A DNA stretch of 64,000 nt from sequence record PZ295659.1, one strand, 5' to 3'. The notes below the pieces were generated by a model, which was given only the letters and a program-made list of their open reading frames with translations, was not told the DNA's origin and made no database searches. The DNA is from a phage. Position numbers and translations under genes: made by a program. Positions 2,515-16,420 of this stretch are shown here, piece by piece. Each line of letters starts with the position of its first letter. The first letter of the stretch is position 1.

Positions 2515-2763
2515 TTATTCTTTTTCGCGAATAATAATTACTTGTTGAGGCTGCTGAGCAGATTTCTTTTCGGCAACGATAGACCAAATTAAAGTTCCAA
2601 TCCAACCAACCATCGTCCAGTTAAAGAGTAAAGATACAAAGAAGATTGCTGTTGTGCTTTTTGTGCCACGAATAAGTGCGATTACCCAAGGCAACATGTA
2701 AATGATGATTGAACCAATACCTGCGATTAAAACCGCTACTGAACTAGCTACGAATAATTCCAT
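2515..2763 (-). CDS. small membrane protein, superinfection-immunity (Imm)-like
   Basis: 82 aa, two hydrophobic helices; LPWVIALIRG...NWTMVGWIGTLIWSI resembles the Imm_superinfect family signature. Confidence 0.55.
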   Translation of the reverse strand: MELFVASSVAVLIAGIGSIIIYMLPWVIALIRGTKSTTAIFFVSLLFNWTMVGWIGTLIWSIVAEKKSAQQPQQVIIIREKE

Positions 2764-2824: not shown

Positions 2825-3193
2825 TTAATTAAATTTGTTTAAACGTTCAATACACTGGACGTAGTTATTTGCGATTTGTTTCTGGGTAGGCTCTTTACCA
2901 GTTGTTTCAATATAGCGAATGAATGCGATTTCAGTAGCCTGTAAGCAATGTTCTTTAACGCGCTGTTCTTTTGACATAGCTACGGTATCAGAATCACGAT
3001 AACGTTGAGCATGAGCATCAGCTTGAATCATTCGATTACCTACAGTAACCGGGTCTTCCACTTCAACTTTAGGTTGGTCATACTGTTTAACATTCGGATT
3101 GTAAATCAGTTGGCCAACGTTATTAGGGATAAAGCCGTGGGCACCACATCCGGTTAATCCAAATACCATTGCTAAAGCGATTAATTTTTTCAT
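2825..3193 (-). CDS. putative lipoprotein
   Basis: 122 aa; MKKLIALAMVFGLTGC signal peptide with lipobox LTGC. Confidence 0.55.
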   Translation of the reverse strand: MKKLIALAMVFGLTGCGAHGFIPNNVGQLIYNPNVKQYDQPKVEVEDPVTVGNRMIQADAHAQRYRDSDTVAMSKEQRVKEHCLQATEIAFIRYIETTGKEPTQKQIANNYVQCIERLNKFN

Positions 3194-5513: not shown

Positions 5514-5855
5514 TTAAAAGAATTTAAATTTTTTCTTGGTCCGTTCATTAAAAGCTTGTTGTACTTGCATTGTAACACATTTTTCAACATGTGGTGCAAG
5601 TTCTGCTTTTCTGTCCTGGTCAAGAACTGCAAAGTCCATTACGATTTTACCATCAACCCAGTCTAGTTTTGTAATATAGACTATATGATGAGAACCATCT
5701 TCAAGCGTAATCAGAATCTCTTGAATGACATTTTCCATTGCTGAACGGATAATTTTAAGAGATTCATTAAACACTCGTTCTTTGCGAATGTCTTCCCCTT
5801 CCGAAGAAGGGGATTCATCAACGATTTCTAGATTTAAATCATCGAGATTATTCAT
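5514..5855 (-). CDS. 40: gp40 head vertex assembly chaperone
   Basis: Syntenic small ORF between uvsX and 41; track ORF starts at a TTG, ATG at 5855 preferred. Confidence 0.6.
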   Translation of the reverse strand: MNNLDDLNLEIVDESPSSEGEDIRKERVFNESLKIIRSAMENVIQEILITLEDGSHHIVYITKLDWVDGKIVMDFAVLDQDRKAELAPHVEKCVTMQVQQAFNERTKKKFKFF

Positions 5856-7020
5856 CGAAATCTTCCATTTCGTCAAGGTCGTTTTCTATATCTGCTGCAG
5901 ACGGAGCATCAGAAGTTTTAACCGGAACTTTAGTTGTTGCTTTGCAATTAATAAGGTCGTTAACAGCGTCATCAACTTCTTTAATAGAAGAGATAGCACC
6001 TAGTTTATATTTAGTTTCAATTGCATCTCGGAAAGGTTTGTGTTTAAACAACGGTCCCCAGAATTCTACACAATCAGTAGCTTTAGCACGCCATGATTTT
6101 TCTTCACGAATCATTTCACCTGTTTCTTCGTCAAGGAATTCACGAGCATACCAACCAGCTTTAGGCTTAACTACAAAACCAATTTCAGTTGCCATTTCTA
6201 ACAAGCCACTGAATGGGTCAATACCACCATCAAAATTAACTGTGATCGGAAAAGTAGATTTCTCTTTAACCGTACGAGATTTTTCTGCTTTCAACGTGAA
6301 GTCATAACCGGTCAATTCTGTACCTTCTTTAACCTGACGTTTAGAGATAAAGAATACAGTGTTAGCAGAGTAAAGAATACCTGTACCACCACCCATAATC
6401 TCTTTAGGATACAATCCGCCAATTTCCATTGCGGTATGGTTAATTGCAACACACGGAATATCTTTAATAGTCAGATACGGGGTCACAATGCGGAACAGAG
6501 ATTTAAGTGCCTTAGCACGAGACATATCACCTACAACTTTCTCGTTCAATGCATCTTCGGTTTCTTTCTTAGATGCAGTATTACCGATTGAATCGATAAA
6601 GATAATAACTTTATCACCGCGTTCAATCGCGTCAAGCTGATTAGTCATATCAACTTTAAGTTGTTCGACAGATTGAATCGGAGTATGAACTACACGGTCT
6701 AAATCAACACCCATTGAACGAAAATAAGATTCTGAAGCACCAAATTCTGAATCATAGAACAAACAAATTGCATCTTTATATTTCTTCATATATGCTGCAA
6801 CCATGGTCAGACCAAACAACGTTTTAAAGTGTTTAGAAGGAGCAGCAAAAATAGTTAAGCCTGATTGCAACCCGGCATTCAGTGCACCACCTAATGCAAT
6901 ATTCAACATCGGAATACGAGTAGGGACTTCATCACGATTATTAAACAGCTTAGACTTAGTCAAGTCTGCAGTCATTTTAGAAGTAGAAGCTTTAATCAGA
7001 CGAGATTTTAAATCAGACAT
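5848..7020 (-). CDS. uvsX: UvsX RecA-like recombinase
   Basis: 390 aa, MSDLKSRLIKASTSK... RecA fold motifs, colinear with T4 UvsX. Confidence 0.95.
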   Translation of the reverse strand: MSDLKSRLIKASTSKMTADLTKSKLFNNRDEVPTRIPMLNIALGGALNAGLQSGLTIFAAPSKHFKTLFGLTMVAAYMKKYKDAICLFYDSEFGASESYFRSMGVDLDRVVHTPIQSVEQLKVDMTNQLDAIERGDKVIIFIDSIGNTASKKETEDALNEKVVGDMSRAKALKSLFRIVTPYLTIKDIPCVAINHTAMEIGGLYPKEIMGGGTGILYSANTVFFISKRQVKEGTELTGYDFTLKAEKSRTVKEKSTFPITVNFDGGIDPFSGLLEMATEIGFVVKPKAGWYAREFLDEETGEMIREEKSWRAKATDCVEFWGPLFKHKPFRDAIETKYKLGAISSIKEVDDAVNDLINCKATTKVPVKTSDAPSAADIENDLDEMEDFDE

Positions 7021-7120: not shown

Positions 7121-7669
7121 TTAACGAGCCCATTTGATAATTTCTGTAATCAAATTATTACGTTCGCTTGCATTAAATCCTATAACTTTGTTAGCACCAT
7201 CATGATTAAGTAATTGATACGTTTGGATTTCGTTATGAATTGCAAACTCTTCAAAATATGAAATGACTGTATTAAAACCGAACGAAGACAAAGTAATAAG
7301 GTCGTCTTCAAAACTTTCAGTCATTTCGTTACGTGTTAAAATAATTGTGAACACATCATGGTTTTGGCAAAGACGAACATAATCCTGTTCATAAACGTCA
7401 AGAACCGAGTCCGCATCTTGTCGAATACGTCCATAAACCCAGTTACTAATATATCCACGGTCTAACAGATAAATCTTAGTAGGGTCTAAATAATTCAACA
7501 TCGTTTCGAAACAGCCAACTTCATTTCGAGACTTAACATCGAAACGTCCATCAACTGTTCGTTTAGGGAAATCAATCTTTACATATCTTTCGCTAATTTC
7601 CATTATGTCATTAATGAAAGTTGTTTTACCAGCATTATCCGGGCCATCTACTAAAATAATTTTAGCCAT
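7121..7669 (-). CDS. P-loop nucleoside-monophosphate-kinase-like protein (Tmk-like)
   Basis: 182 aa; Walker A ILVDGPDNAGKTT and LLDRGYIS (DRY-like) motif of thymidylate-kinase-type kinases. Confidence 0.6.
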   Translation of the reverse strand: MAKIILVDGPDNAGKTTFINDIMEISERYVKIDFPKRTVDGRFDVKSRNEVGCFETMLNYLDPTKIYLLDRGYISNWVYGRIRQDADSVLDVYEQDYVRLCQNHDVFTIILTRNEMTESFEDDLITLSSFGFNTVISYFEEFAIHNEIQTYQLLNHDGANKVIGFNASERNNLITEIIKWAR

Positions 7670-7670
7670 T

Positions 7671-8570
7671 TTATTCCTCGATTACGACATCTTCATATTT
7701 AGGTATATTATACGGCGAAGAAATTAAAGCATTAAAGTAGATGAACTCACCAAGACCTGGATGGAATACTTCTTCAGGATTTTCGAAATATTGAATCTTC
7801 GGTCGTCCTTTAAGAATTTGATAGTACTCAGTTTTAGTTGGGTTAAAAATTCGAATCAGCGCTTCTTCAGGATACTTATTTCTGTCGAAGCTATTATTTG
7901 GATCGGTTATATAAAGCGGTTGGCCTAATTGAATTGCACATTCAACCACTTGTTCAAAACGATAACACGGGTCACTAATTCGAAATGGATGAAAAATACC
8001 ATCTAGATGAATAGGAGCCAAATCACCTACAAGACGCTGCATGATGGAAGGACGTATAACTTTCTGCGTTACGATAATCTTATTACCATCTGCACCTGCG
8101 TTAACCAGCACTTCTTTTTGACGTTCATTCAACACAGTAGTTTGAAGTGAACGATTAACCGACAACATGTCGGTTTTTAAGAATTCGTCAATATAAAAAC
8201 GTGGTTTATTAGGGTCCGCAGTGATATTGAAATTGAATTCCACATCAAAAGCGCCGTCATATCCAGTGATATCTGTGATTAGAAAATCACAATCATAATA
8301 AGCAATTAATGAATCAACCACAAATTCATTTTCAGACCAGAAATATTTACGAGTGTTATATGCGTTATCTTTATACCATAATGGAACAAACTTAAATTCT
8401 GGGAAAAGACGTTCACATTCTTTAATATCAGATGCATTACGTGGATATGTAATCACATCACCCGGATTAGCACGGTGCAAATGAAGTTGGAAGTTGCCAT
8501 CCTTAAGGATAGCATACTGTCCAGTTTCATAAGACCGCATACTCAAGATAGGTACGCGGAAAATAGCCAT
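7671..8570 (-). CDS. hypothetical protein; candidate DNA glycosyl(arabinosyl)transferase
   Basis: 299-aa ORF at the position T4 uses for beta-gt, no clear T4 bgt similarity; HPGLGEF region faintly GT-B-like. Confidence 0.5.
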   Translation of the reverse strand: MAIFRVPILSMRSYETGQYAILKDGNFQLHLHRANPGDVITYPRNASDIKECERLFPEFKFVPLWYKDNAYNTRKYFWSENEFVVDSLIAYYDCDFLITDITGYDGAFDVEFNFNITADPNKPRFYIDEFLKTDMLSVNRSLQTTVLNERQKEVLVNAGADGNKIIVTQKVIRPSIMQRLVGDLAPIHLDGIFHPFRISDPCYRFEQVVECAIQLGQPLYITDPNNSFDRNKYPEEALIRIFNPTKTEYYQILKGRPKIQYFENPEEVFHPGLGEFIYFNALISSPYNIPKYEDVVIEE

Positions 8571-9286
8571 TAGTCAAGGAATCCTTTAACATAATCAAAA
8601 TCACGTTCAAACACATGGGCACTTACCATGGTATGAGTATAATCACCAACTTCTACACCACATTCGTTAGCGATATAATGAAGTAATTTTCCTTGGAGAT
8701 AAAAATCCAACTGCATAACAACAGCACAGTTCTGAGAACGCATATGACAGTGGGTATAAAGCTTACCATCACGAATATAATAAGTCACTGAGTCAGTACA
8801 TGGATATTCAAGTGTTTCGTCCGAATCAAGCAAAGCCTGATCTGAACTTTCTAGAATTTGGAACACAACTCTTCGGGAGTTAGGCTTCTCTTTAAGTTCT
8901 TTTAGAAGAGCTGGTAATTGAGCCGCAATGCGAGGACCGTAGAAAGTGTTGAAGTTTGCAGGCAAAGCGTCTGATTTAGGTTTAGAAATAAATTTAGCGA
9001 CATTAGGATATGCCTTAAATGCTTCTTCTGCATCAGTACCACCAGAAATCATAAACTTCCAGAAGTCTTCGGCATATTCATAAGAGATGCGATTAATACG
9101 TGGATCGGTCATTTTGAATGATGAAGGGGTATCAACAACTACTGTCATAGACCCAATTTCATTACAACGTCCAATACGAGAATCAGTAACGAACTGTGGA
9201 TTTTCTAAAATTTCACGATTAACAGCTTTAAATGCGGATTGAAAATCTGCGGCTTTAATATATTTCATTGTGTTATGTTTTCCCAT
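8570..9286 (-). CDS. 42: deoxypyrimidine (dCMP) hydroxymethylase, thymidylate-synthase family
   Basis: NSRRVV, catalytic YPCTDSVTYYIRDGKL, MRSQNCAVVMQLDFY, ECGVEVGDYTHTMVSAHVFERDF align with TS/gp42 core; Asp rather than TS Asn in the pyrimidine-recognition position. Confidence 0.75.
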   Translation of the reverse strand: MGKHNTMKYIKAADFQSAFKAVNREILENPQFVTDSRIGRCNEIGSMTVVVDTPSSFKMTDPRINRISYEYAEDFWKFMISGGTDAEEAFKAYPNVAKFISKPKSDALPANFNTFYGPRIAAQLPALLKELKEKPNSRRVVFQILESSDQALLDSDETLEYPCTDSVTYYIRDGKLYTHCHMRSQNCAVVMQLDFYLQGKLLHYIANECGVEVGDYTHTMVSAHVFERDFDYVKGFLD

Positions 9287-9302
9287 GTTTACCTCAATAC
9301 AG

Positions 9303-9330
9303 TTATTATATACTCAATTCATAAAGCTTA
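9303..9330 (-). promoter_or_regulatory. possible MotA-dependent middle promoter upstream of gene 42
   Basis: Minus strand AAGCTTTA (MotA-box-like) followed ~12 bp later by TATAAT. Confidence 0.35.
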
Positions 9331-9406
9331 TTTGAATTTCTTAGCAATGTTGATATAACGTAAAGCTTCAGCATCGATACTTCCAAGAACACTATGAAGA
9401 AATGCA

Positions 9407-9568
9407 TCAGCGTAGTATTCTAGTTGAACAGGTTTCTTTAATCACTTTAGCCGCTTTAGTTTCAAACAGGCCCATAAGGGCCTTTTTAAGAATTTGTTCG
9501 TTGCTGTTAATTTTCGTAGTCAAAATCTCTTCATTAAGTTGGTGGTTAAAAGTTTTTCTAGAAATCAT
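9407..9568 (-). CDS. micro-ORF (53 aa) translationally coupled to upstream gene
   Basis: ATG overlaps stop of 386-aa gene (ATGA), GAGGT SD; MISRKTFNHQLNEEILTTKINSNEQILKKALMGLFETKAAKVIKETCSTRILR. Confidence 0.35.
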   Translation of the reverse strand: MISRKTFNHQLNEEILTTKINSNEQILKKALMGLFETKAAKVIKETCSTRILR

Positions 9569-10725
9569 TCCGGGTACCTCAAAGCGTCGTCAGAGTTAGT
9601 TATATCAATAATAGATATAGAGTTTTCTGCTAACCCATTTTTAGATAACTGACGTTTATAATATCTTTCACAATATGTACACGTCGTCCCGCAGATTTCA
9701 TTAGCACAATCGAAATCTGGATGTCTGAACCACCTTTTTTCTAAAAAGCCATCTAACAAAGAGGTTTCAATATTTACCGTATGTGAAAACTCGGTCTCAT
9801 TTTCAAGAGTGAAAATAGTCTCTAAAGGCTTCCACAATTCCAACAAATTACCTTCAAATTTTTCAGAAGCATAAGCTTCAAGAACTTTCAAAATGTAGTC
9901 TGTGCTACCTGTACGTCCTGAAACTTTGAATTGAGTGATACCAATATCATTATAAAGTTTCAAATCTTGAGGACGAACAAAACGAGTTCTCAACCAGTTA
10001 AATGGGTCTGTATCACGAGCTTTAATACAGTGTTGCATTGGATAGCCATTTAAGGATTTGGCATCATCTACTGTAACGTCGGTGCTATGGAAAATATAGC
10101 AAGAGTCACGATAGCTACAATGTGTTGTATACCCTTTACCAGCATTAGAACAGAACTCATTTACAAGAACTTCAAATATTATATTGTTCTTATTGCAAAA
10201 CTCTGCTGCACGCTTCAGGAAAGAAACTGAACGGTTCTTATGAATTCCACAGCAGACCTTTTTGATATTATATTGGTCATGCAAGTATTTGATTTGAGTT
10301 ACAGCATCGACATGTAGAATTGTTGAAACTTCAATCTCAATGTCTTTATTAACTTCACGAACAATTTCCATAACAACAGGGTTAGCGATAGTAATACGCC
10401 ATACGCCTATTGACCAAAGATACTGAACATAATCCTGAATAGCTTTCTTCTTCCACTCAACTAGTTCTCTTTTTGAACCAGGATTTATCGTGTTGAGTGT
10501 ATAGTTAAAGCAAATACCTAATTCGTTACAACGTTTAACATAATCTTCTAACATCTTTTTGTCAACGTCAGGAAGCCTAAAATCAGGTCTGGCTGCTACA
10601 AAAGCCATTTCTCTTGTAGAGCCGTATACTTCATTTATCAAGCTATTAGGATAAGTTTTATTGAGCTCTACGATTTTATCAAGAAGAGCTAAATCAAAAT
10701 TCGTTCCGATTTTAAAAGTATTCAT
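9565..10725 (-). CDS. Cys-rich enzyme of unknown function (U32-like layout, C-terminal CX4CX3CX2C cluster)
   Basis: 386 aa; N-terminal region resembles peptidase-U32-type TIM-barrel proteins; C-terminal CANEICGTTCTYC; several central Cys. Confidence 0.5.
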   Translation of the reverse strand: MNTFKIGTNFDLALLDKIVELNKTYPNSLINEVYGSTREMAFVAARPDFRLPDVDKKMLEDYVKRCNELGICFNYTLNTINPGSKRELVEWKKKAIQDYVQYLWSIGVWRITIANPVVMEIVREVNKDIEIEVSTILHVDAVTQIKYLHDQYNIKKVCCGIHKNRSVSFLKRAAEFCNKNNIIFEVLVNEFCSNAGKGYTTHCSYRDSCYIFHSTDVTVDDAKSLNGYPMQHCIKARDTDPFNWLRTRFVRPQDLKLYNDIGITQFKVSGRTGSTDYILKVLEAYASEKFEGNLLELWKPLETIFTLENETEFSHTVNIETSLLDGFLEKRWFRHPDFDCANEICGTTCTYCERYYKRQLSKNGLAENSISIIDITNSDDALRYPE

Positions 10726-10779
10726 TTTTACATCTCGCGTTAATTGATGCGATGGTTTTTGCAGGTCTTACTTAAATTA

Positions 10780-11181
10780 TTATAGATTCGGTTTATATGA
10801 TTTAAATGTTTCGAATTCGCCTTTATTCATAAGAGCTTTGAATTCGTCAGGACGCATAGCTTTGTCGTCGATAATCCAATCATATACTGGTTTATGTGTT
10901 AGCAAATTATGGTACTTCAAGCCAATGTTTGCCAAGTTCTGAATCAGACTTGGGAGAATGTCAATTGCTATACGACCAGGACCTACTGACTTCATACCGC
11001 GAGCAGTGTAAAGCGTTATTGTATGCCCTGCATCATACAGGGCATTAATGGCAGACACCATTTCGACGTCTGGTTTGAAGTTCACGTAATCACGATTGTT
11101 ATTCCACTCGGTTATACAATCATCGACATCAAAACAAAGATTAAGCATGTTTTCTACACGGTGCATTAGATTCGTTCCCAT
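10780..11181 (-). CDS. HAD-superfamily phosphatase-like protein
   Basis: 133 aa; motif I FDVDDCIT, motif II LYTAR, motif IV IIDDK. Confidence 0.6.
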   Translation of the reverse strand: MGTNLMHRVENMLNLCFDVDDCITEWNNNRDYVNFKPDVEMVSAINALYDAGHTITLYTARGMKSVGPGRIAIDILPSLIQNLANIGLKYHNLLTHKPVYDWIIDDKAMRPDEFKALMNKGEFETFKSYKPNL

Positions 11182-12851
11182 TGATGAGTGATATCGCCAC
11201 CGATTGGACGATAGGAAACACCAGTTTCTTTATCAGTTAGTACCCATTTACCAGGATTTTTTGTAATCAGAGTAGCCGTTACAGGTTCTGCTACGTCATA
11301 ACTAATAGAGCCGTCTTGAAGTACACGGCCCATGTTACGTAATTGCTTAGTCAGAAGTTCCATACCTTTATAATATGCGGCTACCGCTTTAAGTGGATTA
11401 TTCTTGAAATAACCACCTAATGCAATCCAGATAATTGCTACAGCCAAATGATGATACTCGTTAAACGAACTCATCTTTCCATATTTGTAAACTAATGGAT
11501 TGATGTTAATAGTCACATTACAAGTTGTTTCATCAATAGTAAACTGACCCCAGGTCGGATTAGCGTTGAATTCATCATAACCTGAAACAGCGTAAAGCAC
11601 TTTAGCTTCATCATACAATTTTGGCCCGTAAATCTTGGTTTCACCAAAATATCCACGAGGGTCGATAAACTTGACTTCACCATTATCAGTAATCATAGTA
11701 TTACTGAAGTTCGGGTCACCATGAATAACAGAGTACTGTCCCTGAGAACGGTTATGATAACGAATAAGGTGTTCTAAAGCTTGTTTCAACATTGGCTTCA
11801 GACGTCCAATCTTAGTGTAGTTCACATGTGTGATTTTACCAAATGAATCAATCAATGGTTGAATACTTTCACAACGATCAATAACTTTCGTATAGAATTC
11901 TTTAGTGAAATCACGACGAACAGTTTCAGGACTTACAAAATAAGTGTCTGTGCTGAATTTCAGTGCATCTAAAATTGCATCAACAATTTGTGGACGAGCA
12001 AGACTCGATTTGGATTTAATATATTCAAATGCCGGCTTACCTTTAATGCGTTCCATTTCAAAGTTATTTTCATTAACAGAAACTAACTGAGGAACTGAAT
12101 CTGATTTCACTTTAAGATACCATGAAATCTCATCTTTCTGAAGAGCTCGACCCTGTTCGGTTAATGCGAATTTAGTTACAGTTTCTTCACCAATTTCAAC
12201 TGCATTAAAACTACGATTAAGTTCACGAACTTCATGAGCTTTTTCAAGTTTAGGCATATCACCTAAATCAATTAGATTCATAAGCTCTGATTTATTGAAT
12301 GCGCTGCCGTAAAGGAATTCTACGAAATCACGCCCTTTGCAGTATTCATGAATTTCCTCATCAGTAGAACCCATATAGAATTCCCAGTCTTTGAACTGAT
12401 AAATTCCTACAACATTACCACCTGTTGAACCTACGTTAGTGATATTTTCACCGTCGAAATTATATCGACATTCGTCACCCTTAACATAGATTGCGTTAAC
12501 ATTCCAAGACCATGAACCAAAATCAGGAATAATATCGCACCAGTTAACAATTACATTATGGCTGTCTAAATCTTTGTGTAATTTAGCAAGAGCATAAGCA
12601 GAACCATACGCTTCATCAACTGTACGAATAGTCACATTGAACCCTTCTTGCTCACAATAAGCTCGAACAGTTTCAGCAAATTTTGAATGAACTACTACAA
12701 TAATTTCATCTGCGCCAAGGTCAGAATAAATTGTATACAAATTGCTCAGAATAGTGTCTTGTTTATAGTTAACAAGCACCTTAGGAATATGATGCGTTAT
12801 TGGATACAAACGAGTTGCCAGTCCAGCACCAAGAATAACAGCTTTTTTCAT
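11166..12851 (-). CDS. bifunctional sugar-1-phosphate nucleotidyltransferase / APH-family anomeric sugar kinase
   Basis: 561 aa; N-terminal VILGAGLATRLYPIT (G-x-G-T-R-L NTase motif); C-terminal VIHGDPNFSN...KFIDPRG (Brenner motif and DxG of choline/aminoglycoside kinase fold). Confidence 0.8.
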   Translation of the reverse strand: MKKAVILGAGLATRLYPITHHIPKVLVNYKQDTILSNLYTIYSDLGADEIIVVVHSKFAETVRAYCEQEGFNVTIRTVDEAYGSAYALAKLHKDLDSHNVIVNWCDIIPDFGSWSWNVNAIYVKGDECRYNFDGENITNVGSTGGNVVGIYQFKDWEFYMGSTDEEIHEYCKGRDFVEFLYGSAFNKSELMNLIDLGDMPKLEKAHEVRELNRSFNAVEIGEETVTKFALTEQGRALQKDEISWYLKVKSDSVPQLVSVNENNFEMERIKGKPAFEYIKSKSSLARPQIVDAILDALKFSTDTYFVSPETVRRDFTKEFYTKVIDRCESIQPLIDSFGKITHVNYTKIGRLKPMLKQALEHLIRYHNRSQGQYSVIHGDPNFSNTMITDNGEVKFIDPRGYFGETKIYGPKLYDEAKVLYAVSGYDEFNANPTWGQFTIDETTCNVTININPLVYKYGKMSSFNEYHHLAVAIIWIALGGYFKNNPLKAVAAYYKGMELLTKQLRNMGRVLQDGSISYDVAEPVTATLITKNPGKWVLTDKETGVSYRPIGGDITHQWERI

Positions 12852-12892
12852 GTTGTGGTCCTCATTGGTAAGTAGGAGTATTGTACACTATT

Positions 12893-13036
12893 CTAGTTAA
12901 AGCATTCATACTTTGCTTGTAGTCCAATCATAATCCATCCGATTACAAGTGTTGGAATCATTACTGGAGCCGTTAAGCTCCAGTAGATAGTCATGACAAG
13001 CATCAATAGTAAAAGTCCTATTGTTATTGCTTTCAT
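12893..13036 (-). CDS. micro-ORF encoding 47-aa hydrophobic peptide
   Basis: ATG overlaps stop of SIS gene (ATGA); MKAITIGLLLLMLVMTIYWSLTAPVMIPTLVIGWIMIGLQAKYECFN; followed by GAGGA SD of NTase/kinase gene. Confidence 0.4.
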   Translation of the reverse strand: MKAITIGLLLLMLVMTIYWSLTAPVMIPTLVIGWIMIGLQAKYECFN

Positions 13037-13668
13037 TGTTCGCCTCGTAACATGGCACCTAGTGCACCGCCAGGGTGGAACTTAAGGAAGTCATTAGAGG
13101 TAAATCCACGTTCAGACGAAAGGTTGATAGCAAACGTATCGATAAGCGCTAACAACAATGTAGTGGACATGGTCGGAGCCAGAGAATTCTCATCAACCTC
13201 TACTGCGATGCCTGTACAGAACGTATAATCAAAAAGAGCTTCATATTCTTGTGGAATGTCTGGGTTACAATGCAACAGAATCTGTTTGACGTTCGGACGA
13301 ATCATTTTAAGATGCTTAGCCACGCCTATCATTTCTTCAGTTTTACCAGAACGACTAATATGAATCAACACATCATTAGGCGCAATGAATCCTGCATCAC
13401 CGTGAGAATAATGCCCGGTGTTCAAGTACATACTAGGGATACCGAGTGAAGCAAATGTTTCAGAAGCTTTAGTTGCAATATTAGCATTCTTACCAACACC
13501 TGTAATAATTACTCGGCTTTCATAATTACTAAGCCCTGGGCGTCGAAGAGTTTCTAGAATAGCATTATAACGAGCAGGGTTTTGACTAATTACTTTGGCC
13601 ATAGCGGCCAAAGAAGAAGCTTGTTTTATGATTGCGTCAATAGCGATAGTAATAGGAGTAGTTTTCAT
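13033..13668 (-). CDS. D-arabinose-5-phosphate isomerase (KdsD/GutQ-like, SIS domain only)
   Basis: 211 aa; IITGVGKNANIATKASETFASLGIPSMYLNTGHYSHGDAG parallels KdsD GMGKSGHIG.K.AATFASTGTPSFF.HPGEASHGDLG. Confidence 0.8.
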   Translation of the reverse strand: MKTTPITIAIDAIIKQASSLAAMAKVISQNPARYNAILETLRRPGLSNYESRVIITGVGKNANIATKASETFASLGIPSMYLNTGHYSHGDAGFIAPNDVLIHISRSGKTEEMIGVAKHLKMIRPNVKQILLHCNPDIPQEYEALFDYTFCTGIAVEVDENSLAPTMSTTLLLALIDTFAINLSSERGFTSNDFLKFHPGGALGAMLRGEQ

Positions 13669-13708: not shown

Positions 13709-16420
13709 TCAAAAATCGAACATATCGAAAAGAGATGCTTTCTTCTCGTAATCGAGTTTCGCTGCTGATGTGAATCCTTCAAGTGGTTTAATAAATGTCT
13801 TCTCAAGGAGAACAGTGTAGTCCATCCAATGAAGTACGTCGTCTTTAATTAAATCTGTGATTTCAGTACCAGAAGGCCATGCGATACATTTATCACCGAA
13901 TGGGTTTCCTTCACGTAAAGGCAGAACATATACTTTTTCACCTTCTACAACTTGCGGTGCATCGATATTACCTTTGATGGCCCGGTTATATGTCAGAATT
14001 CCACGAATATGGAACGGACATTTAGGACCAGGGAATCCACCTACGTCATATTTAGCGATGTTATTCGCAGAAGATACCGACGCGATGCTAATATAATTCA
14101 ATTGACGGAATTCTTTTTCAAACTCTTTAAAATATTCTTGTAATGATTCTTCACCTTCTTGAAGCATACGACGAATACATTCTTTAAGAGCTTTCTGTAC
14201 GGCTTTAGGAGTCGAAGATTTCTGCGTCTCTAGACCCATGATTTTGAGTTTAGGCTCAGCGTAACGAGTACCTTCCATATCCCACACGTTTAATGCATAA
14301 CGTTTCTTACCAGTCCAGAATCCACCAATACCTTTAGAACCAAGTGGAGGCCCAGCGATAGCTTCTCGGTCCATGAACATTAAGTGTTGTTTATTGTTCA
14401 TGTATTCACACATTTCACGGAAACCTCTATCAATAGCTGGTTCCATACGTTCACGTGCAAACTTATCTAAGAAGTCTACCCAGTGGTTGGTATCACGGAA
14501 TTTAGATTCACCAACCTTATCGATAATTTTATCAGCAGATACGTAAATAGAGTCTGTATCACCATAAAGAACGAAAGCTTCACCTTCTGTACCACAAACT
14601 TCGTTCAGATATTCATTAACTTTACGTTCAATCCACTGTAAAGCCATTTGCCCAAATGTTGTGATTGCAGTAGCATTACGCAAATCATAATAACGGAACC
14701 AAACGTTGCCAAGTGCACCATAAAGTGAGTTGATAAGCAATTTACGGTTAATTTGAGCAGTCATACCTGCAACTTCGGTACGTTGAGCTCTAAACAACAT
14801 TTCATTAAGAGATTTAGCAGACAACTTTTTAATCTTTTCTTTAATCTCATCACTGAAGTCGAAACGATAATCAACATCTAATGGTTCGTCAACAGAAAGA
14901 TTAGGATTATGCAATGCCTCTTTAATTATTTCACCGTTACGTTGAGCTGCAAGCATGTAACCTTTATGTTCTTTACGTTGATTAAAGACCTTAGTGATTT
15001 CAGTTGGAACTACACCATCACGGTCTTTATAATACATCATGCCGTTAGGAGAGCAACTGTACACATCTGAAGGACGTTCAGCAACAGCGTTAATATAATC
15101 ATGCAATGGAGCTACTTTAAACGTTCCTGCTATTGTTTCCGGGCTAATATTCACTTGGCGAATAATACTTGGATACAGAGATGTAAGGTCGAAACTCATT
15201 ACATATTTGTATCGATTTGGAATAGGTTCCTTAACAAAAGCACCAGGATAAGGTTGAACCGGGTGAGAACGACCTTGTGGAATCACCTTGTTCTGCTCTT
15301 TAAGGCTATTAAAAATAATAGCATCCCATGTTTTAATTGGGCTAAACACAGATTGAATCTGTATCTTAGCATAATAACCCATGTCCAAACTCAAGTTGAT
15401 GAACTGACGCTTAGCATCAATTTGCAATACACGATACACGTCGATAATGTTATAAGAAATATATCGTTGGTGATTGCTTTCACGAAGCTTAGAAATAGGG
15501 CCGTCATATTTCAGTTTACCAACGTTCAATTCAAATTCTGAAATGTAATCCAGAGAATATGACGGCTGATTGGTAAAAGAGAATTTTTTGTAAAGGTCAA
15601 TGTAATCAAGAACAGAGATACCGAACAATGTAATGATTTCACGAGAACCATACATGTTTTCGATAACTTTAACACGAGTTTTACGATGTGGTGATAAACG
15701 TTTCGCAGTAGATTCGCCAAAAATATTCTTGATTCGGTTATACACATATGGAATATCAAATGACTCAACGTTCCATCCAGTCAAAATGACAGGAGTTTTC
15801 TGTTGCCAGAAGTTGAGATATTCCATCAACAATTCTTTTTCGTTATCGAACGGCATATAAATGATTTTATCGATAATTTCGGATGGAACTTCATCACCGC
15901 CTTGTTCTTGAAGCTTGGCCGCAATTTCGATAGACCATTCTTCTACATTACCATATGGAGAATTCAATAGATCAAATACGTAGAACCTGTCGTCAATTGA
16001 GTCATAATGGGTGATAGCATCAATCGGATGTTTTGCTTGTGACGGCTCAGGGAACCCATCCGGGGATGTTACTTCGATGTCGAAGTTAGCCACACGAATT
16101 TTTGTATGGTCGTATTTGATTTCATAGTTATAAGTGTCAGACAAATACGCCAATTTGAAATCGTCCATGCCAAGTGCTTCAAGTCCGATATCTTCCATGC
16201 GTTTAATCCATTGGGAGGCATCACGCATATTGGCGAACAACTTACGAGTACACGGCTTACCATAGATATCAAAATATTTCGTGGCCTGACTTTCAGGACA
16301 ATGTGCAAACAATGATGGTTTATACTCTACTTCACGAGTACGTTCACGGCCGTTAGAATCGATGTAACGTTCAAAAATTGAATCACCAATCTGTTCAACC
16401 GTTAAGTAAAATTCTTTCAT
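13709..16420 (-). CDS. 43: DNA polymerase gp43 (family B)
   Basis: 903 aa; exo motifs FDIE, YNIIDV; pol motifs SLYPSII, YGDTDS; matches RB69 gp43 as I recall it. Confidence 0.97.
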   Translation of the reverse strand: MKEFYLTVEQIGDSIFERYIDSNGRERTREVEYKPSLFAHCPESQATKYFDIYGKPCTRKLFANMRDASQWIKRMEDIGLEALGMDDFKLAYLSDTYNYEIKYDHTKIRVANFDIEVTSPDGFPEPSQAKHPIDAITHYDSIDDRFYVFDLLNSPYGNVEEWSIEIAAKLQEQGGDEVPSEIIDKIIYMPFDNEKELLMEYLNFWQQKTPVILTGWNVESFDIPYVYNRIKNIFGESTAKRLSPHRKTRVKVIENMYGSREIITLFGISVLDYIDLYKKFSFTNQPSYSLDYISEFELNVGKLKYDGPISKLRESNHQRYISYNIIDVYRVLQIDAKRQFINLSLDMGYYAKIQIQSVFSPIKTWDAIIFNSLKEQNKVIPQGRSHPVQPYPGAFVKEPIPNRYKYVMSFDLTSLYPSIIRQVNISPETIAGTFKVAPLHDYINAVAERPSDVYSCSPNGMMYYKDRDGVVPTEITKVFNQRKEHKGYMLAAQRNGEIIKEALHNPNLSVDEPLDVDYRFDFSDEIKEKIKKLSAKSLNEMLFRAQRTEVAGMTAQINRKLLINSLYGALGNVWFRYYDLRNATAITTFGQMALQWIERKVNEYLNEVCGTEGEAFVLYGDTDSIYVSADKIIDKVGESKFRDTNHWVDFLDKFARERMEPAIDRGFREMCEYMNNKQHLMFMDREAIAGPPLGSKGIGGFWTGKKRYALNVWDMEGTRYAEPKLKIMGLETQKSSTPKAVQKALKECIRRMLQEGEESLQEYFKEFEKEFRQLNYISIASVSSANNIAKYDVGGFPGPKCPFHIRGILTYNRAIKGNIDAPQVVEGEKVYVLPLREGNPFGDKCIAWPSGTEITDLIKDDVLHWMDYTVLLEKTFIKPLEGFTSAAKLDYEKKASLFDMFDF

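Follow-up and report, generated by a model that had tools for sequence, protein, structure and literature searches.

Why should a gene cluster for the hypermodification of phage DNA encode a protein of the U32 family, and which modified base does such a cluster make? Both questions are raised by a tightly packed block of genes at positions 7121-13668 of a 64,000-nucleotide stretch of phage DNA (sequence record PZ295659.1), which we refer to as the window. With high confidence, we identify the block as the cluster for arabinosyl-5-hydroxycytosine DNA hypermodification in an RB69/HY126-type Mosigvirus. This cluster and its sugar route are already known and have been published from 2018 onward. 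A sequence-only reading of the window had taken the donor-sugar pathway and the transferase to be biochemically unassigned, which is out of date, as the genes were flagged in 2018 and biochemistry and crystal structures followed in 2025-2026. The new element is a lead from comparative genomics that connects the U32-family protein with prephenate and with a possible second, oxygen-independent hydroxylase.

The block between uvsX and gene 43

All seven open reading frames (ORFs) that the sequence-only reading had placed in one minus-strand block between uvsX (5848-7020) and gene 43 (the DNA polymerase gene, 13709-16420) were recovered with exactly the same boundaries. Adjacent genes either overlap by 1-16 nt or have at most 54 nt between them, with the interval 9286-9565 as the sole exception, and two additional small ORFs are located at 12893-13036 (47 amino acids, aa) and 9407-9568 (53 codons). 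From gene 43 towards uvsX, the features of the block are as follows.

13033..13668, minus strand: predicted SIS-only arabinose-5-phosphate isomerase, RB69 gp55 homolog (211 aa; TIGR00393, KdsD NF008141, PF01380)
12893..13036, minus strand: hydrophobic small protein, RB69 gp54 homolog (47 aa; phrog_3610 7e-27)
11166..12851, minus strand: predicted bifunctional kinase/nucleotidyltransferase, AfhE homolog, RB69 gp52:53 (561 aa; PF00483, weak matches to kinase families)
10780..11181, minus strand: small HAD phosphatase, AfhF homolog, RB69 gp51 (133 aa; TIGR01689, phrog_1238 5e-43)
9565..10725, minus strand: U32-family protein, RB69 gp50 (386 aa; PF01136 6e-11)
9407..9568, minus strand: truncated RB69 gp49 homolog (53 of 79 codons; one extra A compared with RB69)
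8570..9286, minus strand: thymidylate synthase (TS) homolog, predicted 5-hydroxy-dCMP synthase, RB69 gp48 (238 aa; PF00303 2e-15)
7671..8570, minus strand: GT-B glycosyltransferase, RB69 gp46:47, putative first arabinosyltransferase (299 aa; fold model)
7121..7669, minus strand: Tmk-like P-loop nucleotide kinase, RB69 gp45 (182 aa; phrog_761 5e-45)

The 6.5-kb block matches 213 phage records, and because 155 of these match at 95-99% identity, it is not a chance pattern. Its DNA is 97.8% identical to RB69 and 98.0% identical to HY126, which places the window in Mosigvirus. Compared with the RB69 (gp45-gp55) and HY126 (Afh) cluster, the window contains the same genes in the same order with the same signature residues, and it is a member of that group. 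The proteins are 97-100% identical to those of HY126, with 182/182 identical residues for the kinase, 296/299 for the glycosyltransferase, 237/238 for the TS homolog, 384/386 for the U32-family protein, 544/561 for the nucleotidyltransferase-kinase and 211/211 for the SIS protein. The HY126 HAD protein is likewise matched at each of its 128 residues, and an alternative start of the HAD gene at 11166 yields a product of 128 aa. The genes for the 299-aa and 561-aa proteins are intact in the window, whereas each is in two pieces in the RB69 reference (gp46:47 and gp52:53); these splits have been explained as sequencing errors in the old RB69 record (PMC13326640, PMC6024577). The base composition of the window shows no island signature, and a promoter/terminator scan was uninformative (22 promoter-like sites compared with 25.5 expected). 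Studies of the RB69/HY126 cluster reportedly include He et al. 2026 in Nat Chem Biol and Mahler et al. 2025 in Cell Host Microbe. Essentially nothing weighs against the identity of the cluster, and from the ~98% identity we infer that in the virion DNA of this exact phage dC would be replaced by mono- or di-arabinosyl-5-hydroxy-dC.

The nature of the modified base depends on the TS homolog, which is identical at 237 of 238 positions to the proteins in PDB entries 9IQC, 9IR2 and 9IQU and at 236 of 238 positions to RB69 gp48. Its catalytic cysteine is C163, and its residues E160, N186 and D194 correspond to L143E, D169N and N177D in ThyA numbering, which are the signature of 5-hydroxy-dCMP synthases (Lee et al. 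2026, PMC13326640). The Asp at ThyA position 169 that marks a folate-type dCMP hydroxymethylase is absent, as N186 occupies that position. In RB69, nuclear magnetic resonance (NMR) and mass spectrometry (MS) showed that mono- and di-arabinosyl 5-hydroxycytosine takes the place of cytosine, the sugar being joined directly to C5 through an ether link; gp48 binds flavin mononucleotide (FMN) and makes 5-hydroxy-dCMP with incorporation of oxygen from 18O2, and under aerobic conditions the TS homolog and a deoxynucleoside monophosphate (dNMP) kinase (gp159 in RB69) suffice (PMC13326640). A second group reported arabinosyl-5-hydroxy-dC in phage NP and described the earlier assignment of arabinosyl-5-hydroxymethylcytosine (ara-hmC) as erroneous (PMC13390438). 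By its residues and near identity, the TS homolog of the window is predicted to be a flavin- and O2-dependent 5-hydroxy-dCMP synthase, and the arabinose would be attached to 5-hydroxycytosine and not to 5-hydroxymethylcytosine (hmC).

The sequence-only reading had described the protein as a TS-family hydroxymethylase and the base as hmC. Its family assignment holds (PF00303 2e-15), but the hydroxymethylase activity and the base do not. A T4-like dCMP hydroxymethylase, followed by transfer of NDP-arabinose onto hmC, would fit membership in the TS family, the position of the gene, which is that of T4 gene 42, and the name ara-hmC used in 2018 (PMC6024577), but it is highly improbable here given that the spectroscopic and labelling data have already refuted it for RB69 and that N186 replaces ThyA D169 in a protein almost identical to gp48.

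The cluster can be compared with hmC glucosylation in T4, which uses the gene 42 dCMP hydroxymethylase and alpha- and beta-glucosyltransferases. Both systems are located between gene 43 and uvsX, and in both dCMP is modified by a TS-superfamily enzyme ahead of replication, after which the hydroxyl so created receives sugar from GT-B enzymes. In the window, however, that group is a hydroxyl formed with flavin and O2, compared with a hydroxymethyl formed with methylene-tetrahydrofolate in T4. T4 also uses UDP-glucose of its host, whereas the phage of the window must make its own donor sugar, because NDP-arabinose is not known in Enterobacteriaceae (Lee et al., PMC13326640).

For that donor, the sequence-only reading had proposed the order isomerase, anomeric kinase, phosphatase and nucleotidyltransferase leading to NDP-arabinose, which matches the published pathway. 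The SIS protein matches the profiles KpsF/GutQ TIGR00393 (2e-32), KdsD NF008141 (1e-30) and PF01380 SIS (2e-10). It covers positions 2-153 of the 268-position KpsF model and is thus SIS-only; in contrast to KdsD/GutQ it lacks the tandem CBS pair, which is consistent with a KdsD-like role in a partial architecture. The 561-aa protein begins with a sugar-1-phosphate nucleotidyltransferase domain that extends to residue ~109 (PF00483 7e-10 over residues 3-100, together with NCBIfam matches to sugar-1-phosphate nucleotidyltransferases), and weak matches to APH, fructosamine-kinase and EcKL kinase families cover residues ~308-409. The HAD protein matches the EcbF/BcbF capsule-biosynthesis phosphatase model TIGR01689 (4e-13), and the DVDD motif is present. 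These profiles bear out the KdsD-like isomerase, the fused nucleotidyltransferase/APH-family kinase and the small HAD phosphatase of the sequence-only reading, which had named two sugar-side outcomes as speaking against itself. Neither was found: the GmhA model is absent among the NCBIfam matches of the SIS protein, for which KpsF and KdsD are best, and the nucleotidyltransferase groups with sugar-1-phosphate enzymes.

Thomas et al. 2018 described eight non-T4 genes that form a module from gene 43 to uvsX and put forward ORF055c and ORF53_52c as UDP-arabinose enzymes (PMC6024577); as a proposal, the route from ribulose-5-phosphate to UDP-Araf dates from 2018. RB69 gp55, gp52:53 and gp51 have since been assigned to the steps from ribulose-5-phosphate (Ru5P) through arabinofuranose-5-phosphate (Araf5P) and Araf1,5P2 to Araf1P and UDP-Araf (Lee et al. 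2026, PMC13326640). As relayed by Lee et al. from He et al. 2026, HY126 AfhE is bifunctional, being both an arabinose-5-phosphate kinase and a UDP-arabinose pyrophosphorylase, and AfhF is a phosphatase (PMC13326640). According to the profiles and the identity to HY126, all three enzymes of this UDP-arabinofuranose route (arabinose-5-phosphate isomerase, kinase/pyrophosphorylase and HAD phosphatase) are present in the window. The route resembles the ADP/GDP-heptose pathway (GmhA, HldE/HddA, GmhB and nucleotidyltransferase) in its sequence of isomerisation, phosphorylation at C1, removal of the distal phosphate and nucleotidylation, and both include a fused kinase-transferase. This is an analogy only: the SIS protein of the window groups with KdsD/KpsF, its kinase is APH-like and not ribokinase-like, and the substrate is a pentose.

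The clusters of Marfa (L027), Pm5461 (L038) and JS98 (L003) lack a KdsD-like SIS gene, and their nucleotidyltransferase-kinases are 42-44% identical to that of the window. A different sugar may be activated in these phages, or a host isomerase may be used.

Two enzymes of the block had been left unassigned by the sequence-only reading. One of them, at 9565-10725, is the U32-family protein discussed below. The other, at 7671-8570, yielded no Pfam or NCBIfam match, but its structural model (31 homologs, pLDDT 94) has a GT-B fold. The Foldseek matches of this model included the UDP-Glc:tetrahydrobiopterin glycosyltransferase 9v0w (5e-7), MshA 3c4q and the HY126 glycosyltransferase with UDP 9ir0. 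In RB69, structure and synteny led to the assignment of gp46:47 and gp3 as arabinosyltransferases (Lee et al. 2026, PMC13326640), and we regard the GT-B enzyme of the window as the putative first DNA or nucleotide arabinosyltransferase. The Tmk-like kinase at 7121-7669, correctly recognized before, matches the phrog_761 thymidylate kinase family (5e-45) and has the P-loop GPDNAGKT. Because it is always linked to the TS homolog and the glycosyltransferase, it probably handles the modified nucleotide by phosphorylating the modified dNMP.

In the resulting scheme, whose steps up to UDP-Araf have been established for near-identical proteins, the TS homolog would hydroxylate dCMP at C5 with flavin and O2, and the SIS isomerase would convert ribulose-5-phosphate to arabinose-5-phosphate. 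A dNMP kinase encoded elsewhere would carry the hydroxylated product towards 5-hydroxy-dCTP. On the sugar side, the kinase half of the 561-aa enzyme would phosphorylate C1 (Araf-5-P to Araf-1,5-P2), the HAD phosphatase would take off the 5-phosphate (to Araf-1-P) and the nucleotidyltransferase half would form UDP-Araf from Araf-1-P and UTP, giving four activities on three proteins overall. Judged by fold and synteny, the 5-hydroxyl would receive its first arabinose from the GT-B enzyme and the next one from another transferase, encoded outside the window.

The U32-family protein and its gene neighbourhoods

Because the U32 family is tied to pyrimidine C5 hydroxylation without O2, the same chemistry that the O2-using hydroxylase of the cluster performs, the gene at 9565-10725 merits attention. 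In E. coli, RlhA is required for 5-hydroxycytidine at position 2501 of 23S rRNA and needs prephenate and the biogenesis of iron-sulfur (Fe-S) clusters; mutagenesis showed that its Cys169 and Cys176 are essential and that the E161A variant is nearly inactive. TrhP has the equivalent role for ho5U34 in tRNA, and UbiU/V are responsible for those hydroxylations of ubiquinone synthesis that proceed without O2. RlhA and TrhP act at pyrimidine C5, and prephenate as the donor of oxygen has been shown for the UbiU/V pathway. The U32 proteins that have been studied functionally are not proteases.

The phage protein contains the U32 domain PF01136 (6e-11, 42.4 bits compared with a cutoff of 22.4 bits). 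A PDB sequence search found nothing, and the only specific PDB fold match of its structural model (pLDDT 89) was the U32 structure 5D88. In an alignment of 28 family members with identities down to 46%, ten cysteines are invariant, including C192, C203, C209, C233 and a C-terminal CX4CX3CX2C motif, and these residues may point to Fe-S clusters. The best E. coli paralog in hhalign comparisons was RlhA (E=3e-5 over 195 columns), and E190, C203 and C209 of the phage protein align with E161, C169 and C176 of RlhA. The alignments with TrhP and UbiU were too weak to be used. RlhA's DUF3656 and C-terminal region are missing from the phage protein. No other protein of the cluster is as conserved across genera: its identity is 82-89%, compared with 62-84% for DNA polymerase and 70-82% for the TS homolog.

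The gene that follows the U32 gene in Enterobacter phage Entb_45 is annotated as chorismate mutase and matches Pfam CM_2 with 40.9 bits, compared with a cutoff of 27 bits. CM_2 genes beside U32 were also identified in Klebsiella PhiKpNIH-6, Pectobacterium PM2, Yersinia phiR1-RT, Proteus Pm5461, Serratia CHI14, Escherichia EcS1 and Shewanella Thanatos-1, all above the gathering score. In our hidden Markov model (HMM) scan, CM_2 adjoins U32 in eight of eight non-Mosigvirus genera and occurs in none of the three U32-less clusters scanned (JS98, Acinetobacter Maestro and Pseudomonas PspYZU05). The phage CM_2 proteins retain six of the eight EcCM active-site residues (R11, R28, K39, E52, S84 and Q88). 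This chorismate mutase family was found in 51 phage records, and the matches listed all adjoin U32 and/or the TS homolog, with none of them in Mosigvirus. In Thanatos-1, the U32-chorismate mutase pair (L005, 10151-11541) follows the Tmk-like kinase instead of standing between the HAD and TS genes, which indicates that the pair moved as a unit. The U32 protein of Thanatos-1 is 82% identical to that of the window, compared with only 65% for DNA polymerase, and this difference suggests that the pair spreads horizontally as a cassette.

In total, we identified the U32 gene in 222 phage records, all at least 80% identical. The hosts listed for these phages are Escherichia, Shigella, Klebsiella, Serratia, Proteus, Yersinia, Enterobacter, Providencia, Edwardsiella, Pectobacterium and Shewanella, all of which are facultative anaerobes. 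The TS homolog, in comparison, was found in 374 records, including 57 phages of Acinetobacter and 20 of Rhizobium, both aerobes. No U32 gene from Acinetobacter or Rhizobium phages was present among the matches listed, and none fell in the lower identity range expected for such orthologs.

A distant U32 family, 40-58% identical, is large and occurs in metagenomes and IMG/VR viral contigs. For 25 non-redundant loci of this family, our scan covered the three genes to either side of U32 (145 proteins). The commonest neighbours were Thymidylate_kin (9), Pol III alpha (7), DAHP_synth_1 (5) and SIS (4), followed by CM_2, dUTPase, dCMP deaminase and NTP_transferase (3 each). The DAHP_synth_1 neighbours are Bacillus-type DAHP synthases (2e-65 and 3e-70); an assignment as KdsA, which would have indicated arabinose-5-phosphate sugar chemistry, was rejected because KDO8P synthase matched only at ~1e-17. 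Fusions of chorismate mutase and DAHP synthase lie just upstream of U32 in four distant loci. Because DAHP synthase homologs were found in only 13 of 50,697 phage records, the association of U32 with DAHP synthase is not due to chance. Individual loci place U32 beside 5'-nucleotidase, deoxynucleoside kinase and radical-SAM genes, directly before a DAHP synthase, or beside dUTPase, kinase, Pol III alpha and RecA. In many distant loci, a homolog of the window's glycosyltransferase is located directly upstream of U32, and some loci, such as L019, contain glycosyltransferase, SIS, nucleotidyltransferase-kinase, U32 and DAHP synthase genes in one run. No clear TS homolog was found within 6-8 kb on either side of the distant U32 genes, where the only match was a weak one in L042 (3e-5). 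On the simplest interpretation, the hydroxyl to which the glycosyltransferase of these distant phages attaches sugar comes from U32.

Some of these loci also hint at other bases and sugars. In two uncultured phages (L016, 7447-9086, and L020, 6504-8083; one of the contigs is 466 kb long), dCMP deaminase is followed directly by the translationally coupled U32 gene, with an overlap in L016. Thymidylate kinase and UDG-family genes are near, as is Pol III alpha, and sugar genes are absent, which hints at hydroxylated uracil (5-hydroxy-dU) as the DNA base rather than cytosine. In a further uncultured phage (L022, 4777-13179), a single run of genes comprises Gly_transf_sug and a glycosyltransferase homologous to that of the window, then U32, a TAGT-like DNA glycosyltransferase, dUTPase/DCD and UDP-galactopyranose mutase. 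This phage likely modifies pyrimidines with galactofuranosyl groups and does so without a TS homolog. A second, more divergent U32 gene lies a few genes from the first in another contig (L017, 12160-14360), where it adjoins a radical-SAM/SPASM gene and a nucleoside 2-deoxyribosyltransferase gene; the dockerin/GH43 protein encoded on this contig suggests an anaerobic cellulolytic host.

From these neighbourhoods we propose that the U32 protein may be a prephenate-dependent, O2-independent pyrimidine C5-hydroxylase that acts on dCMP or DNA and is paired with a phage chorismate mutase in other genera, and we judge the chances of this proposal to be evenly balanced. Such an enzyme would allow enteric phages to make 5-hydroxycytosine DNA without oxygen, alongside the TS homolog, and would be the sole hydroxylase in many uncultured phages that have no TS homolog nearby. 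In anoxia, when the O2-dependent step stops, the U32 Fe-S enzyme would supply 5-hydroxy-dCMP, or 5-hydroxycytosine in DNA, from host prephenate. The proposed arrangement resembles the dual systems of E. coli, in which UbiI/H/F (flavin, O2) are matched by UbiU/V (U32, prephenate) and TrhO (O2) by TrhP (U32, prephenate), with RlhA as a further U32 hydroxylase. The pairing of a U32 protein with an O2/flavin enzyme for the same product, as proposed here, would be shared with these systems, as are the fold, the Glu and two Cys of the RlhA motif, the many invariant cysteines and the linkage to prephenate supply. In contrast to the E. coli enzymes, the target would be DNA or its precursor and not RNA or a quinone, and the phage proteins form a phage-only subfamily of ~360-390 aa with a different cysteine spacing and the extra C-terminal CX4CX3CX2C motif.

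A role on the sugar side is the alternative that survives best, although we consider it rather unlikely. Lee 2026 lists the protein in Table 1 as a 'sugar or heterocycle reductase', without discussion (PMC13326640), and the BASEL-collection annotation reads 'putative enzyme involved in UDP-arabinose biosynthesis'. An accessory function in UDP-arabinose synthesis would also agree with the location of U32 between the sugar genes and the base genes, and with the SIS and nucleotidyltransferase-kinase genes in several distant U32 loci. However, the three-enzyme route from Ru5P to UDP-Araf is complete without U32 (PMC13326640), and DLP3, Maestro and JS98 have arabinosylation clusters that lack it. 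Distant relatives, moreover, stand with dCMP deaminase, dUTPase and kinases where there are no sugar genes, and sugar chemistry offers no reason for the linkage to chorismate mutase and DAHP synthase.

The gene lies within a DNA-modification cluster in each of the U32-bearing genera examined, and in Thanatos the U32-chorismate mutase pair was relocated within the same cluster. Translational coupling links distant relatives with dCMP deaminase or with the DNA/nucleotide glycosyltransferase. These arrangements, the missing RlhA regions and the presence of TrhP, TrhO and RlhA in the host all argue against a phage RNA hydroxylase of the TrhP (tRNA ho5U34) or RlhA (rRNA ho5C2501) type that tunes translation and whose position in the cluster is incidental. 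We find such an enzyme distinctly unlikely, even though RNA is the target of all U32 enzymes that have been characterised on nucleic acids, the best match in E. coli is RlhA and the prephenate linkage would fit equally well. That the protein is a real collagenase-like peptidase, as its Pfam family is named and as GenBank often annotates it ('peptidase', 'collagenase'), is barely credible, because no catalytic mechanism is known for U32 'peptidases', the ten invariant cysteines suggest Fe-S clusters and the neighbourhoods are those of nucleotide metabolism and prephenate supply.

Several points weigh against the proposed hydroxylase itself. The hhalign probability for the match to RlhA is only 73%, and the cysteine spacing (C192-x10-C203-x5-C209-x23-C233) departs from the canonical CX6CX15CX3-4C. 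The Mosigviruses, including the window, have no chorismate mutase, so that the host enzymes PheA and TyrA would have to supply prephenate. The correlation with hosts is one-directional, as Dhakaviruses of E. coli lack U32, and TS homologs could lie beyond the 6-8 kb flanks of the distant contigs. In vitro reconstitution as a hydroxylase has never been reported for any U32 protein, and the known nucleic-acid U32 enzymes work on RNA polymers and not on dNMPs. In air, the O2 route of TS homolog and dNMP kinase is enough (PMC13326640). Lee 2026 and the Thanatos paper mention neither U32 nor chorismate or prephenate, and He 2026 and Mahler 2025, which were outside the scope of this analysis, may already assign or exclude a role.

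Further features of the window and of related loci

The 47-aa ORF at 12893-13036 is very hydrophobic, has a 4-nt overlap with the stop of the SIS gene and is present in a shorter version in the RB69 record. Small ORFs are annotated at the equivalent position in JS98 (citing RB69 orf054c), Pectobacterium PM2 and EcS1, and the genera with a small ORF at the gp54 position are Dhakavirus, Mosugukvirus and Kagamiyamavirus.

The gp49 homolog is frameshifted in the window by one extra A at ~9431-9433 (AAAGAAACC compared with AAAGAACC in RB69), and the remainder continues out of frame to ~9329. The same gene is frameshifted in HY126, and of the ~56 Mosigvirus records sampled, ~11 show it broken or in two pieces, with HY126, PHB12, JS09 and TU01 among them. 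Decay of the gene or slippage at the A-run may be the cause. Homologs of the gp49 family, Yersinia phiR1-RT g049 and Pectobacterium PM2 gp045, lie between U32 and the true chorismate mutase. We rejected gp49 itself as a diverged chorismate mutase, as it has no Pfam match and an hhalign probability of 0.2% to CM_2. Between the HAD and U32 genes, Yersinia phiR1-RT (L009) and Serratia CHI14 (L011) carry a segB-type homing endonuclease gene (1852-2490).

The sequence-only reading had also stated that the block replaces imm of T4. In fact, imm has been relocated to 2518-2763 (minus strand), where its product is 100% identical to RB69 Imm. Together with imm.1 (2828-3193) and sp (spackle, 2161-2451), both also on the minus strand, it forms a group between gene 61 and dmd, a site that differs from that in T4 and JS98, where these genes are beside gene 43.

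Labels in public phage records are frequently misleading for this cluster: the HAD phosphatase appears as 'phosphoheptose isomerase' (for example RB69p051, at 6662-7048 of L001), the TS homolog as 'dCMP hydroxymethylase' and the U32 protein as 'peptidase' or 'collagenase'.

Implications for the phages and for the U32 family

As already published, it is by means of this cluster that RB69-type phages, frequent candidates for phage therapy, protect their DNA against restriction enzymes and CRISPR. If the proposal for the U32 protein is true, it would be the first U32 enzyme in DNA metabolism, and DNA precursors would join RNA and quinones as targets of the family's hydroxylases. It would also be the third case in which a flavin/O2 route and a U32/prephenate route are paired for one product, and it would explain continued modification in the anoxic gut, where the known hydroxylase lacks O2. 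The soluble phage protein, with its simple substrate, would offer the in vitro reconstitution that the family lacks. Finally, the proposal would point to a large set of uncultured phages whose pyrimidines are hydroxylated and glycosylated by means of a different enzyme.

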